Shown: positions 54,288 through 56,353 of the stretch, piece by piece | Numbering within the stretch: the first letter of the stretch is position 1 | How the letters are laid out: each line of letters opens with the position of its first letter | NCBI GenBank assembly: GCA_944391975.1 | Contig: CALXVK010000001.1 | Span: forward strand, 1-59,788 | DNA from: an uncultured Clostridia bacterium | GTDB taxonomy: Bacteria; Bacillota; Clostridia; TANB77; CAG-508 | Length of the DNA: 59,788 nucleotides | Reading direction: 5' to 3' | Made by a program: the position numbers and the translations under genes | The notes under the pieces: model-generated | Databases searched by the model: none | What the model saw: only the letters and a program-made list of their open reading frames with translations | Told to the model about the DNA's origin: nothing

Positions 54288-54992
54288 TTAATTAAGTGCC
54301 TGATAAATTATTTCAAAAAATCCAGCTGCTCCAAATATGACAATCGCTAATATTAAAGTTCTAACTAATTCTCCTTTTTCTACTGCTTTTTCTGATGCAG
54401 CTGATGTTGTAAAATATTTTATACCAACAACTGTAAATCTTATAATAATATAACCAATAGCTCCTACCTGAATAACTCTGAAAATAGTATTTATAATCAA
54501 CATAAAAGTTGAATTTTGAGAAGTAGCAGTTAAACCTTGAGCAGTATTTTTTAATTGTGATATAACATTTGATGTATATGAACTATTATCAATAGCTGAT
54601 GCTATTAATTTATATAATGGATATGCTCCTATAAGAAGAATGCAGACTATAATCCAGCCAGCTAATTCTTTTTTCAATGATGCTCTATCACCAGGACTAC
54701 TCATACCATATTTAACAGCTTTATAAATTGTAAGTGCTATTACAATCACACAACCAGCAAAATATAGAACTTGTGCTATACCAGTTATCAAATTCATATT
54801 TATTGAAACTCCCATTGTGTTCAATTTATTTTGTCCCATTTGCATAAATGTATTTGAACCACTAGTAATCTGATTAAGCACATTATCACCAGCAGTTGAA
54901 GCTTGTACTTGAAGTGGATTTACCAAAAAATATAAAATTACTGTAAAAAAGACAATACATATAATTAATAACTGTTTTTTCATCTTTGTCAT
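54288..54992 (-). CDS. Secreted membrane protein built from two tandem VirB2-pilin-like modules
   Basis: The protein has a signal peptide (..VNPLQVQAS). It then has two copies of a helix / charged loop / helix unit: ...IALTIYKAVKYGMSSPGDRASLKKELAGWIIVCILLIGA... and ...IIRFTVVGIKYFTTSAASEKAVEKGELVRTLILAIVIFGA.... Confidence 0.55.
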   Translation of the reverse strand: MTKMKKQLLIICIVFFTVILYFLVNPLQVQASTAGDNVLNQITSGSNTFMQMGQNKLNTMGVSINMNLITGIAQVLYFAGCVIVIALTIYKAVKYGMSSPGDRASLKKELAGWIIVCILLIGAYPLYKLIASAIDNSSYTSNVISQLKNTAQGLTATSQNSTFMLIINTIFRVIQVGAIGYIIIRFTVVGIKYFTTSAASEKAVEKGELVRTLILAIVIFGAAGFFEIIYQALN

Positions 54993-55035
54993 AACAAAAT
55001 CTCCATAATTCTACAAAATATAAATACTTAATTTT

Positions 55036-55064
55036 ATTATACTTAATTTTTTTTAATTTTTCAA
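55036..55064 (-). promoter_or_regulatory. Sigma-A type promoter for the core T4SS-like operon
   Basis: On the minus strand: TTGAAA, a 17-nt spacer, then TATAAT, about 40 nt upstream of the ATG at 54992. Confidence 0.6.
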
Positions 55065-55138
55065 TAAATTCTCGTATTTTTTTGTTTTTTAACATATTTG
55101 TAATATACTCATTTTCATATGTTCACAATCCGTAAGGA

Positions 55139-55173
55139 AAATTTAAATTATATATTAAATATAATTTAAATTT
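55139..55173. promoter_or_regulatory. Perfect 15-bp inverted repeat (aaatttaaattatat-N5-atataatttaaattt), possible operator
   Basis: I checked the arms base by base. The repeat lies between the pilin-unit terminator and the core-operon promoter. It is AT-only, so chance similarity is more likely than for a mixed sequence. Confidence 0.4.
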
Positions 55174-55198
55174 TTATTTTAAACATACTTTTAAACAA

Positions 55199-55239
55199 AT
55201 AAAAAAGAACTATTAAAAATTTCTTTTTAAATAGTTCTT
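55199..55239 (-). terminator. Rho-independent terminator or attenuator after the three pilin-like genes
   Basis: Stem aagaactatt/aatagttctt immediately after the stop at 55240, followed by TTTTTT on the minus strand. Confidence 0.7.
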
Positions 55240-55551
55240 TTAAGCAATAATATCTTTTAAAATATATTCTACTAACTGTTCTGCATAATAAATTATATTT
55301 GTTGCACCGATTAAAACTACAGCTCCAATTAAATAGTTTCTAAAAGATTTTTTAAGCTCTGCCTTATCATGTGGTCCTTGAGCTGTCATATATCTTATTG
55401 ACATATATGTAAGCATTATTAATGCTAATCCAGTTCCTATAAGTCTTACCCAGTTAAGAACAAATCCTATCGCTGTACGTTCAGCTTCAATGATATTACT
55501 AGCAACTGGAGCATTATTTAAAAGATTAGTTATAGGATTCGATAAAAACAT
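55240..55551 (-). CDS. VirB2/TrbC-pilin-like small membrane protein (copy 3)
   Basis: The protein is 103 aa. The module is ...LIGTGLALIMLTYMSIRYMTAQGPHDKAELKKSFRNYLIGAVVLIGA.... Confidence 0.55.
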   Translation of the reverse strand: MFLSNPITNLLNNAPVASNIIEAERTAIGFVLNWVRLIGTGLALIMLTYMSIRYMTAQGPHDKAELKKSFRNYLIGAVVLIGATNIIYYAEQLVEYILKDIIA

Positions 55552-55565
55552 ACAATTTTCCTCCT

Positions 55566-55943
55566 TTAAATATTATTTATATTTCCTTCAATAAACATTT
55601 GTATAATTTTTAATATTGAAGAAGCTCCAAATAAAATCACTGCTCCCATAATATATACTGGTAATTGTTTTTTTATCTCAGCTTTATCTGCTGGATGGTA
55701 TGTATTTACATATCTAATTGCTAACCATATAAGCATTATAATTGCAATACCAGCTCCAGCAATTGAAACTATATTAATAACAGCTCCCATTGTTGTATAA
55801 ACAACATTTCCAGTATTTCCTGCACTATAATTTTCTACAGCATCCCAATCTGGTGTCCATGCAAATACATTTTGAGCTGTAAACATAGAAAATAAAACTA
55901 TAAAAATAAATCCAAAAATTATTTTTAACTTATTATTTTTCAT
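55566..55943 (-). CDS. VirB2/TrbC-pilin-like small membrane protein (copy 2)
   Basis: The protein has a signal peptide ending ..AQNVFA. The module is ...IAGAGIAIIMLIWLAIRYVNTYHPADKAEIKKQLPVYIMGAVILFGA.... I chose the ATG at 55943 because it follows the RBS aaagggga; the track start is 55958. Confidence 0.55.
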   Translation of the reverse strand: MKNNKLKIIFGFIFIVLFSMFTAQNVFAWTPDWDAVENYSAGNTGNVVYTTMGAVINIVSIAGAGIAIIMLIWLAIRYVNTYHPADKAEIKKQLPVYIMGAVILFGASSILKIIQMFIEGNINNI

Positions 55944-55975
55944 ATTTTCCCCTTTCATTTTACTCTATATTTTTT

Positions 55976-56353
55976 CTAAAAAACATCTTTTACAAAATAT
56001 GTTACAAATTGTAAAATACCTGATGCTGCAAATAATATTGCCGCACCTATAAAATAATTTGGAACATCTTTTTTTAATTCTGCTCTTAATTCCGGAGTTG
56101 CTATAATATATTTGATTCCTATAATAATTAGTAACAATAAACCAATACAGAATGCTACAATTCTTATAATATCTAAAGCTATACCTGCTGTTCTATTAAT
56201 TGTATTATCTATAATTTCAAATTTAGTTCCTTCCGATGTATATGAATCAAATTGATTAACACTACCATAATCCGCTGCATATATAACAACTGTATTCACA
56301 TAAAATAAAATTAAAAATATAAATAAAATCTTATATAACACTTTATTTTTCAT
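55976..56353 (-). CDS. VirB2/TrbC-pilin-like small membrane protein (copy 1)
   Basis: The protein has a signal peptide ending ..VVIYAA. The module is ...IVAFCIGLLLLIIIGIKYIIATPELRAELKKDVPNYFIGAAILFAA.... Confidence 0.55.
   Translation of the reverse strand: MKNKVLYKILFIFLILFYVNTVVIYAADYGSVNQFDSYTSEGTKFEIIDNTINRTAGIALDIIRIVAFCIGLLLLIIIGIKYIIATPELRAELKKDVPNYFIGAAILFAASGILQFVTYFVKDVF

Follow-up and report, generated by a model that had tools for sequence, protein, structure and literature searches.

In a 59,788-nucleotide stretch of DNA from an uncultured Clostridia bacterium (contig CALXVK010000001.1; hereafter the window, along whose full length all positions are counted), four neighbouring genes on the minus strand encode small membrane proteins that we regard, with little residual doubt, as carrying five pilin units of the VirB2/TrbC superfamily and as belonging to a type IV secretion system (T4SS). 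The locus as a whole is best explained as a probably non-conjugative T4SS resembling those of Patescibacteria, in which an abundantly produced array of pilins is combined with a separate pilin made together with the secretion machine, a reading to which we assign a probability of roughly 0.7. Membership in a T4SS follows because the pilin genes are located directly upstream of genes for VirB3-like, VirB4 and VirB6-like proteins, at the head of a 25 kb operon (~31259–56353) that runs on the minus strand throughout (Table 1).

Pilin units and their family

The four genes had been read as VirB2-pilin-like in an earlier description made from the DNA letters alone (the original prediction), and the family scores together with the T4SS gene neighbours bear this out. 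All four open reading frames (ORFs) named there are present on the minus strand, each preceded by a plausible ribosome-binding site. In the case of gene 2 the longest ORF begins at position 55958, and the start at 55943 chosen in the prediction has the better ribosome-binding site. Profile hidden Markov model (HMM) searches against PF04956 (TrbC/VirB2) and similar families matched pilin families above threshold: with PF18895 (T4SS_pilin; gathering threshold 26.6), pilins 1, 2 and 3 scored 31.7, 33.6 and 47.8 bits, respectively, and pilin 2 reached 31.1 bits with PF04956 as compared to a threshold of 27.9, the corresponding values for pilins 1 and 3 being 16–17 bits. For comparison, related loci were collected by scanning one genome per species, which gave 373 stretches with a close VirB4 relative. 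Locus comparisons use the best 80 of these, with subsets of 71 loci for the terminator and promoters, 76 for orthology of the fused di-pilin gene and 65 relatives for the pilin alignment. Among these 65 diverse relatives, 59 matched PF18895 and 36 matched PF04956 at E <= 1e-3; a single homologue of pilin 2 is labelled ‘VirB2 component (pilin)’ by JGI.

The three small genes and both halves of the fourth had further been claimed to share one helix-loop-helix module, and on this point alignments, BLASTP and hhalign agree. As aligned, each unit opens with a hydrophobic helix whose end reads (I/V)(K/R)Y; a loop containing P.DKAE(L/I)KK connects it to a second helix, which is marked by IGA..LFGA. 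BLASTP using composition-based statistics returned significant matches for 10 of the 10 pairs among the five units (E 1e-4 to 1.7e-19), and the similarity is therefore not an effect of composition. The di-pilin remained under the threshold when compared to PF18895 alone (11.4 bits, E = 0.34), and it was the profile–profile comparison of its two halves that substantiated the proposed fusion. For this, hhalign was used to compare a 10-homologue alignment of the di-pilin with the alignment of the 65 pilin relatives. The first half matched over residues 67–135 (E 2.6e-16) and the second over its final 76 residues (about 159–234; E 3.6e-14), in each case at a probability of 98%. With an HMM built in this analysis the two units scored 56.9 and 55.2 bits. 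The protein comprises two complete units connected by a linker of ~35 residues and has five hydrophobic segments.

The family alignment displays a signal peptide with a nearly invariant alanine at its end, a variable ectodomain of 25–35 residues, helix 1, a basic loop and helix 2. The original prediction of a signal peptide followed by two transmembrane helices and a basic loop thus holds for the layout of the family, but not for the leader of gene 3: the N-terminal hydrophobic segment is absent from pilin 3 according to hydropathy and alignment, and 11 of 11 members of its cluster are leaderless proteins of 103 amino acids. Hydropathy located the hydrophobic segments of pilin 1 at residues 9–27, 62–80 and 102–120. 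AlphaFold2 modelled pilin 2 (pLDDT 77.9) as a signal helix and a hairpin of helices 43–80 and 84–122, with a core pLDDT of at least 90. The di-pilin model, calculated from a 10-sequence alignment, reached a pLDDT of 52.6 and is usable only as secondary structure, which consists of four long helices in two pairs. BLAST-alignable pilin pairs from the same locus are divergent, with a median identity of 36%. Comparison to two close relatives yielded ratios of nonsynonymous to synonymous substitution rates (dN/dS) of 0.10–0.40 for the pilins (0.10–0.15 for pilin 1) and 0.19–0.32 for the di-pilin, and by this measure the genes are under purifying selection.

Transcription and gene content of the operon

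Genes 1–3 very probably constitute a transcription unit of their own, which would start at a promoter of the sigma-A type and end at an intrinsic terminator. The terminator, a hairpin (~55203–55241) followed by a U-run, begins at the stop codon of gene 3 and has a folding energy of -12.4 to -13.1 kcal/mol (z = -3.0), and the second promoter-like sequence, P2, is located 43 nt before the start codon of the di-pilin gene. This order of array, terminator, second promoter and core genes had been part of the original prediction, and it recurs in the related loci. In 70 of 71 loci, the next-to-last pilin gene is followed by a terminator-like hairpin with a T-run, with a mean energy of -14.9 as compared to -3.2 kcal/mol in shuffles. 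Beyond it, a promoter match of at least 11/12 was detected in 58 of the 71 loci (2.3% of shuffles), at a median distance of 38 nt from the start codon. Ahead of the first pilin gene, a match of this quality was found in 34% of the related loci versus 1.5% of shuffles. The terminator sequences are unrelated across the 71 loci, and it is therefore the structure that is conserved. Intergenic spacing in the relatives amounts to 0–40 nt inside the array and to 120–300 nt ahead of the last pilin gene. One detail had to be corrected: the array promoter had been described as having an extended -10 element, but its TG abuts the TATAAT (GTGTATAAT), which is one base off register and not at -15/-14.

In many relatives (L010, L017, L019-L032 and others), the first pilin gene stands apart from the rest by 150–300 nt. 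This arrangement suggests an additional, separate transcription unit in these loci, which has no equivalent in the three-gene array of the window.

The genes downstream of the pilins encode the machine. The VirB3/PrgI-like gene occupies the same position as a gene annotated ‘PrgI family’ in plasmid pJFP838A, and the TrsD/TraC-like gene is flanked by the PrgI-like gene and VirB4, which is the neighbourhood reported for TrsD in Patescibacteria (PMC12102498). With the NCBIfam models CD1110 and Mbov_0397, VirB4 scored 203 and 193 bits, respectively, each under the model's own cut-off. Three further proteins, of 385, 1293 and 921 amino acids, are polytopic (6–7 hydrophobic segments) and are read as VirB6-like from topology and sub-threshold family matches, the latter two as ‘extended’ forms. 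The 385-residue protein weakly matches two VirB6-like families of integrative and conjugative elements (ICEs) of Mycoplasma, MMCAP2_0566 (E 6e-7) and Mbov_0396 (E 5e-5), both sub-threshold in NCBIfam. The 1293-residue protein has seven hydrophobic segments and an SLBB domain (E 4e-8), and counterparts of 1000–1800 amino acids are found in most loci.

All three of these proteins contain a hairpin of the pilin type. With PF18895, the embedded units matched at sub-threshold level only (E 8e-4, 3e-4 and 9e-3 for the 385-, 1293- and 921-residue proteins, respectively), whereas the HMM of this analysis, built from the five pilin units and iterated on the related loci, gave 47.4, 47.6 and 63.2 bits, and the three units group as their own subgroup of the pilin unit. 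The original count of five units in four genes is thus correct for the pilin genes themselves, but the total for the operon is eight units in seven genes. Pilin 3, for its part, weakly matches the VirB6-like NCBIfam models pLS20_p028 and MMCAP2_0566. The hairpins of the VirB6-like proteins and these matches hint that VirB2-like pilins and a portion of the VirB6-like proteins of monoderm bacteria have a common origin.

Of the remaining genes of the operon, those for the 519-, 298- and 293-residue proteins are found in 59–63 of 80 loci at about 30% identity. Among the distal genes, the one for the 1937-residue protein encodes a GDSL/SGNH domain (PF13472, E 3e-6) and a lysozyme domain (PF00959, 22.6 bits versus a threshold of 22.3), which makes its product a candidate VirB1-like wall hydrolase.

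Table 1. Features of the pilin and T4SS operon, listed in the direction of transcription (positions as in the window; aa, amino acids)
Feature	Position	Strand	Remarks
Promoter-like P1, TTGAAA-17-TATAAT, before pilin array	56386..56414	-	11/12 matches
Pilin 1 (125 aa)	55976..56353	-	signal peptide, variable ectodomain, helix-loop-helix pilin unit
Pilin 2 (125 aa)	55566..55943	-	PF18895 and PF04956 both above threshold
Pilin 3 (103 aa), leaderless	55240..55551	-	PF18895 above threshold
Intrinsic terminator, hairpin and U-run, end of array transcript	55196..55241	-	hairpin ~55203-55241
Promoter-like P2, TTGAAA-17-TATAAT, for di-pilin and core genes	55036..55064	-	11/12 matches
Di-pilin (234 aa)	54288..54992	-	one signal peptide, two pilin units, residues about 66-135 and 161-234
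VirB3/PrgI-like protein (114 aa, two membrane helices)	53892..54236	-	PF12666 PrgI 19.5 bits, E 0.0015, sub-threshold
TrsD/TraC-like protein (426 aa, N-terminal membrane helix)	52612..53892	-	92%-identical orthologue with precomputed PF26593 TraC-like match
VirB4 ATPase (665 aa)	50602..52599	-	PF19044, PF12846 and PF01935 matches
VirB6-like polytopic protein (385 aa)	49429..50586	-	pilin-like hairpin at residues 157-216; six hydrophobic segments
Three uncharacterised genes (519, 298, 293 aa), two of them for bitopic membrane proteins	45965..49411	-	no family matches
Extended VirB6-like giant (1293 aa)	42082..45963	-	signal peptide; hairpin of the pilin type at residues 50-107; SLBB domain and further membrane helices
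Second extended VirB6-like protein (921 aa)	39298..42063	-	pilin-like hairpin 149-208; seven hydrophobic segments
Distal operon genes: 186-, 318- and 200-aa bitopic proteins and 1937-aa membrane-anchored hydrolase	31259..39281	-	membrane segments, domains

On both sides the operon is flanked by housekeeping genes, among them those for CvpA, a DUF5711 protein, a penicillin-binding protein, a signal peptidase, a Mur-ligase-family protein and a two-component system as well as holB and tRNA genes. Between the T4SS operon and cvpA lies an AIM24-family gene (56542–57396, plus strand) with a GC content of 44.8% amid 24–28%. It is shared with the closest relatives only and may be a recent acquisition. 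Further away, a giant GH94/cyclic-glucan-synthase-like gene (16091–24089, minus strand) appears split: its Glyco_hydro_94 domain is divided between a 2371-residue ORF, which covers profile positions 2–205, and an overlapping 303-residue ORF covering positions 202–420. The gene may be frameshifted or a pseudogene, or the assembly may be wrong at this point. A T-box leader (Rfam RF00230, 112.8 bits) was found on the minus strand at 242–461, close to where the window begins.

Relatives in gut Clostridia and on Clostridium plasmids

Loci of this kind are widespread in gut Clostridia. VirB4 proteins of the best 80 of the 373 loci are 75–98% identical to that of the window, and a search at E <= 1e-20 returned 6971 VirB4 homologues, the best 120 of which are all at least 79% identical. 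In a word-indexed homologue search the di-pilin had 10 relatives (50–100% identity) and pilin 2 had 32 close relatives. The best 80 loci all come from metagenome-assembled genomes of animal and human guts, mostly labelled Clostridia or Clostridium and in a few cases Lachnospiraceae, and among them are Clostridium sp. CAG:354 and Candidatus Scatovivens. The latter is placed in order TANB77, family CAG-508 (PMC13106387), pointing to this order as the home of the VirB4-related loci. Going by the same VirB4 similarity, the low-GC bacterium of the window is itself most likely a member of this family and order. TANB77 bacteria have reduced genomes, count not one cultured member and have been linked to immunotherapy response (PMC11680825).

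In 77 of the 80 loci, 3–8 tandem genes for small pilins (115–170 amino acids) are present upstream of VirB4, the other three loci being short or truncated on this side. Where the downstream flank is available, pilin units also occur in a VirB6-like protein of ~400 amino acids and in a giant protein. In 54 of 76 loci, the last pilin gene corresponds by position and orthology to the first unit of the di-pilin, and pilins 1–3 match array positions; the two-unit fusion is restricted to the closest relatives (L001-L006). Conservation is uneven along the operon. Considering loci with VirB4 identities below 85%, the median identity is 79% for VirB4, 64% for the PrgI-like and 56% for the TrsD-like protein, as compared to 28–39% for the pilins, 29% for the VirB6-like protein of 385 amino acids and about 30% for the other envelope proteins. 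The dN/dS ratio of VirB4, determined against the same two close relatives as for the pilins, is 0.03. Judged from these values, the cytoplasmic motor is under strong constraint and all exposed parts are evolving fast.

Fusion of pilin units reaches beyond this clade. A profile of the eight units of the operon, when run against 1.84 billion representative proteins, produced 7781 matches, many with 2–16 units per chain; it took this exhaustive search to reveal how broad the family is. Examples, taken from entries P0178-P0325, are proteins of 1775 amino acids with 16 units, 1147 amino acids with 10 units and 450 amino acids with five units, in which the linkers measure 35–50 residues. Six of them were inspected (P0183, P0181, P0178, P0184, P0196 and P0200) and proved to be continuous ORFs with one N-terminal signal peptide each. 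One cluster of such proteins contains a member from a Candidatus Altiarchaeales archaeon (MCK4491598.1). Covalent poly-pilins thus seem to be a recurrent theme, and one that is undescribed as far as our literature search showed.

Relatives in cultured bacteria were found on plasmids. A tblastn search with VirB4 matched 569 plasmid records, mostly from Bacillus and Clostridium, of which 377 are typed as non-mobilizable and 156 as conjugative; the best VirB4 proteins, ~39% identical, are encoded on megaplasmids of Clostridium beijerinckii and Clostridium botulinum. Pilin 2 yielded no match in a tblastn search against the plasmids, and the plasmid pilins were located via the VirB4 neighbourhoods. 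In three Clostridium megaplasmids (pINGR16-02E1, pJFP838A and C. beijerinckii p1), whose VirB4 proteins are 33.8–39.8% identical to that of the window, the core order is the one described here: a small gene is followed by genes for a PrgI family protein, a protein of ~330 amino acids, VirB4 and a large VirB6-like protein. The small genes are located at L085 9225-9641, L087 9920-10378 and L086 10137-10547, and their products are annotated as hypothetical. The product from Clostridium perfringens pJFP838A passes the threshold of PF18895 with 30.2 bits. On C. botulinum pINGR16-02E1 the small protein scored 19.2 bits, and the 853-residue VirB6-like protein (L085 13085-15646) contains a hairpin scoring 23.1 bits. 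The C. beijerinckii gene, although in the same position, did not match the pilin profile. Unlike the window, these loci are plasmid-borne and have a single pilin gene, with neither an upstream array nor a di-pilin. From this comparison, a single VirB2-like ‘core pilin’ is already present, unannotated, in T4SSs of Firmicute plasmids, to which the gut lineage would have added a separately transcribed array.

Comparison with known systems and alternative explanations

Gram-positive T4SSs have been stated to lack VirB2, with Patescibacteria as the sole exception (PMC12857230, PMC12102498), which agrees with the original view that multiple pilin paralogs are not standard in Gram-positive modules. 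In Patescibacteria, VirB2 arrays of 2–11 divergent genes are located near PrgI, TrsD, VirB4 and VirB6 on the chromosome, mostly without a relaxase (PMC12102498), and in Southlakia the pilin array is essential for epibiotic growth (PMC12857230). The locus described here shares with those of Southlakia epibionticum ML1 and Nanosynbacter lyticus TM7x a monoderm host, a chromosomal position and tandem divergent PF18895/PF04956 pilins, and further a neighbouring VirB4 of the MPF-FATA type along with putative counterparts of PrgI/VirB3, TrsD and VirB6. As in most Patescibacteria loci, no relaxase accompanies them among the ORFs scanned. The arrays of the Clostridia loci comprise 3–8 genes as compared to 2–11 in Patescibacteria, and the window has its three small genes and the di-pilin within 4 kb of virB4. 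Both lineages are uncultured or hard to culture and have reduced genomes, and each possesses a second kind of pilus, either type IV or Tad (for TANB77, PMC11680825). In contrast to Patescibacteria, the host of the window is a member of the Bacillota (Clostridia) with a full set of wall-synthesis genes in the window itself, and its locus features a covalent two-unit pilin as well as three VirB6-like proteins, including two giants, that contain pilin-like hairpins. Also, it encodes the 1937-residue lysozyme/GDSL hydrolase, whereas most Patescibacteria loci are without VirB1. Our literature search returned no report linking TANB77 or Clostridia to VirB2-like arrays.

More distant systems share some of these features. 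The Gram-negative pilins VirB2 of Agrobacterium tumefaciens, TrbC of RP4 and TraA of F likewise have a leader, two hydrophobic helices and a short basic loop, their genes are located upstream of virB3 and virB4, and pilin 2 passes the threshold of their family, PF04956. Unlike these systems, that of the window has several paralogs instead of one and is without an outer membrane and VirB5, B7, B9 and B10. Tandem amplification and divergence also characterize the VirB2 arrays of Bartonella and Anaplasma, for which variation of the exposed surface has been proposed, according to the part of PMC12102498 in which they are cited; these are diderm intracellular pathogens, however, with a classical VirB system delivering effectors into eukaryotic cells. 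The pilin-like family NF045849 (Mbov_0395) of Mycoplasma, which also has monoderm hosts, is weakly matched by all four proteins (E 1.6e-4 to 1.2e-2), but the scores are far under the curated cut-off (15–21 versus 40 bits), and the Mycoplasma systems reside on ICEs, with only one such gene. Finally, a conserved cluster with several ‘pilin-like’ genes has been published for TANB77 (PMC11680825). We ruled out that this ‘conserved pilin of TANB77’ corresponds to the present locus, as the published cluster is of the Tad type, an unrelated machine with a CpaF/TadA ATPase, a TadB/C platform and type IV pilins that have one N-terminal helix.

The arrangement suggests how such a system might operate. 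The transcription unit of genes 1–3 would supply the bulk of the pilin paralogs in excess of the machine, as abundant and interchangeable major pilins. The second promoter would drive the di-pilin along with the VirB3-like, TrsD-like, VirB4 and VirB6-like genes, so that the di-pilin may be made at machine stoichiometry and serve as a base, adaptor or minor pilin. Its first unit is the orthologue of a ‘core-operon pilin’ that all relatives possess and that stands as a single gene in the Clostridium megaplasmid loci, the second unit having been gained in this lineage. Going by their topology, the pilins are predicted to cross the membrane such that the basic K-Y...KAE-I-KK loop faces the cytoplasm and the two termini face outwards, and signal peptidase would cut after the conserved alanine, except in the leaderless product of gene 3. 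By analogy to VirB2, the VirB4/VirB6-like platform may then extract the pilins and assemble from them a polymer, either a filament or a conduit, that traverses the wall. Such a system would probably mediate contact or exchange with other cells, similar to the relaxase-less T4SSs of Patescibacteria.

Whether the pilins of this scheme form a real extracellular pilus is, in our estimation, an evenly balanced question. In the main rival reading, they would never become filamentous but instead be membrane-embedded or wall-spanning subunits of the T4SS channel, in which case the array would provide interchangeable subunits lining the channel. The presence of the same hairpin inside the three polytopic VirB6-like proteins and the C. 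botulinum plasmid VirB6-like protein suggests that the unit packs within a membrane complex, VirB2 is needed even by T4SSs without pili (PMC12857230), and a pilus has never been seen on any Gram-positive T4SS. Nonetheless, we consider a pure channel function unlikely, if worth keeping in mind: the separate strong promoter and terminator of the array are conserved, in the case of the terminator in 70 of 71 loci, which indicates a large stoichiometric excess as for a polymer, and the variable, fast-evolving ectodomains next to a conserved core fit surface exposure. A role outside secretion, as holin-like or bacteriocin-immunity-like two-helix membrane proteins, has next to nothing to recommend it. 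The original prediction had raised this case itself, along with a lack of pilin profile similarity, and both are contradicted by the profile scores and the gene context. Small size, two membrane helices and a charged loop would suit such proteins, as would a PDB sequence-profile search that returned only designed membrane proteins and the Pf3 phage coat protein, with no VirB2 or TraA. However, two pilin families match above threshold, the pilin genes stay linked to those for VirB4 and the VirB3-like and VirB6-like proteins in all 77 array-bearing loci, and the Pfam and NCBIfam scans revealed no holin, lysis or bacteriocin family.

A non-conjugative role of the T4SS is the likelier one in our judgement, albeit by no means settled, and the setting in a conjugation module that the original prediction had implied probably does not apply. 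According to the competing proposal, an integrated conjugative element is present and the operon is its module for mating-pair formation, the relaxase and the coupling protein being either unrecognised or encoded beyond the window. By the NCBIfam models CD1110 and Mbov_0397, VirB4 is indeed of a type known from conjugative elements of monoderms, the nearest cultured relatives reside on Clostridium and Bacillus plasmids, 156 of 569 being typed as conjugative, and tRNA genes adjoin the operon. Tested against the setting, this explanation fares poorly and appears quite improbable. The locus is chromosomal, and, unlike in Gram-positive conjugative T4SSs of the MPF-FATA type on ICEs and plasmids, no relaxase, VirD4/TcpA-like coupling protein or integrase family was detected among the ORFs of at least 100 amino acids that were scanned, covering all of the operon and most of the flanks; the ORFs scanned in the related locus L029 gave the same negative result for all three. 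Repeats of at least 15 nt common to the two operon borders are absent, the GC content of the operon (28.3% versus 24–26% in the flanks) matches the chromosome, and the synteny around the operon is identical in close relatives. Examination of flanking repeats, GC shift, integrase and tRNA insertion geometry as signs of an integrated element gave nothing in its support. Furthermore, the system extends over at least 373 species genomes, and the combination of a conserved VirB4 (75–98% in the best 80) with pilins of about 30% identity argues for vertical inheritance with uneven rates and not for a recently spreading element.

Several points nevertheless weigh against a Patescibacteria-like, non-conjugative T4SS with a pilin array. 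The pilus itself is a prediction from the genes, the di-pilin model is of low confidence (pLDDT 52.6), and neither the PDB profile search mentioned above nor Foldseek matched a solved VirB2 or TraA pilin: the latter, run with the pilin 2 model against the PDB, hit generic helical hairpins only (E > 1), which is uninformative for such a small fold. The PrgI-like and VirB6-like assignments are both under the curated thresholds. A relaxase and a coupling protein could be encoded elsewhere in the genome or hide as unrecognised families among the unannotated operon genes, and the closest plasmid relatives are typed as ‘non-mobilizable’ merely for want of a known relaxase. The placement in TANB77 is based on T4SS gene similarity and not on marker genes, and the genes flanking the operon upstream are common to the closest relatives only. 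The neighbourhood of tRNA genes is a common site for islands, and here genes for tRNA-Cys and tRNA-Gly (30881–31039, minus strand) adjoin the distal end of the operon, ~220 nt past its last gene and on the same strand. The operon lies on their 5' side, though, and therefore this is not a typical island insertion at a tRNA 3' end.

Taken together, a Patescibacteria-like T4SS with a pilin array remains the reading that we favour for this locus. Pilin arrays in single-membrane bacteria have previously been reported for the parasitic Patescibacteria only, and here the same parts list and logic are met in Clostridia, in a design that spans a clade of gut bacteria with at least 373 species genomes. 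If this reading is true, pilin-bearing monoderm T4SSs would be more widely distributed than previously reported, and their origin might be sought in a plasmid-type core pilin followed by expansion of an array. The single-pilin genes of the Clostridium plasmids are at odds with the generalisation that VirB2 is missing from Gram-positive T4SSs, and they offer a cultivable model. Structurally, the fused di-pilins and poly-pilins are unusual; covalent chains of 2 to 16 units, found in bacteria as well as in Altiarchaeales, may represent an undescribed way of building VirB2-type filaments. For TANB77, the reading would provide a concrete hypothesis on cell-to-cell dependence. More speculatively, and with the odds clearly against it, these bacteria could depend on physical association with other gut bacteria or with host cells and use the T4SS as Saccharibacteria do; no earlier member of the Bacillota would then have been known to form a pilus with a T4SS. 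If so, there would be a mechanistic reason for the resistance of TANB77 to cultivation and a handle for bringing its members into co-culture.

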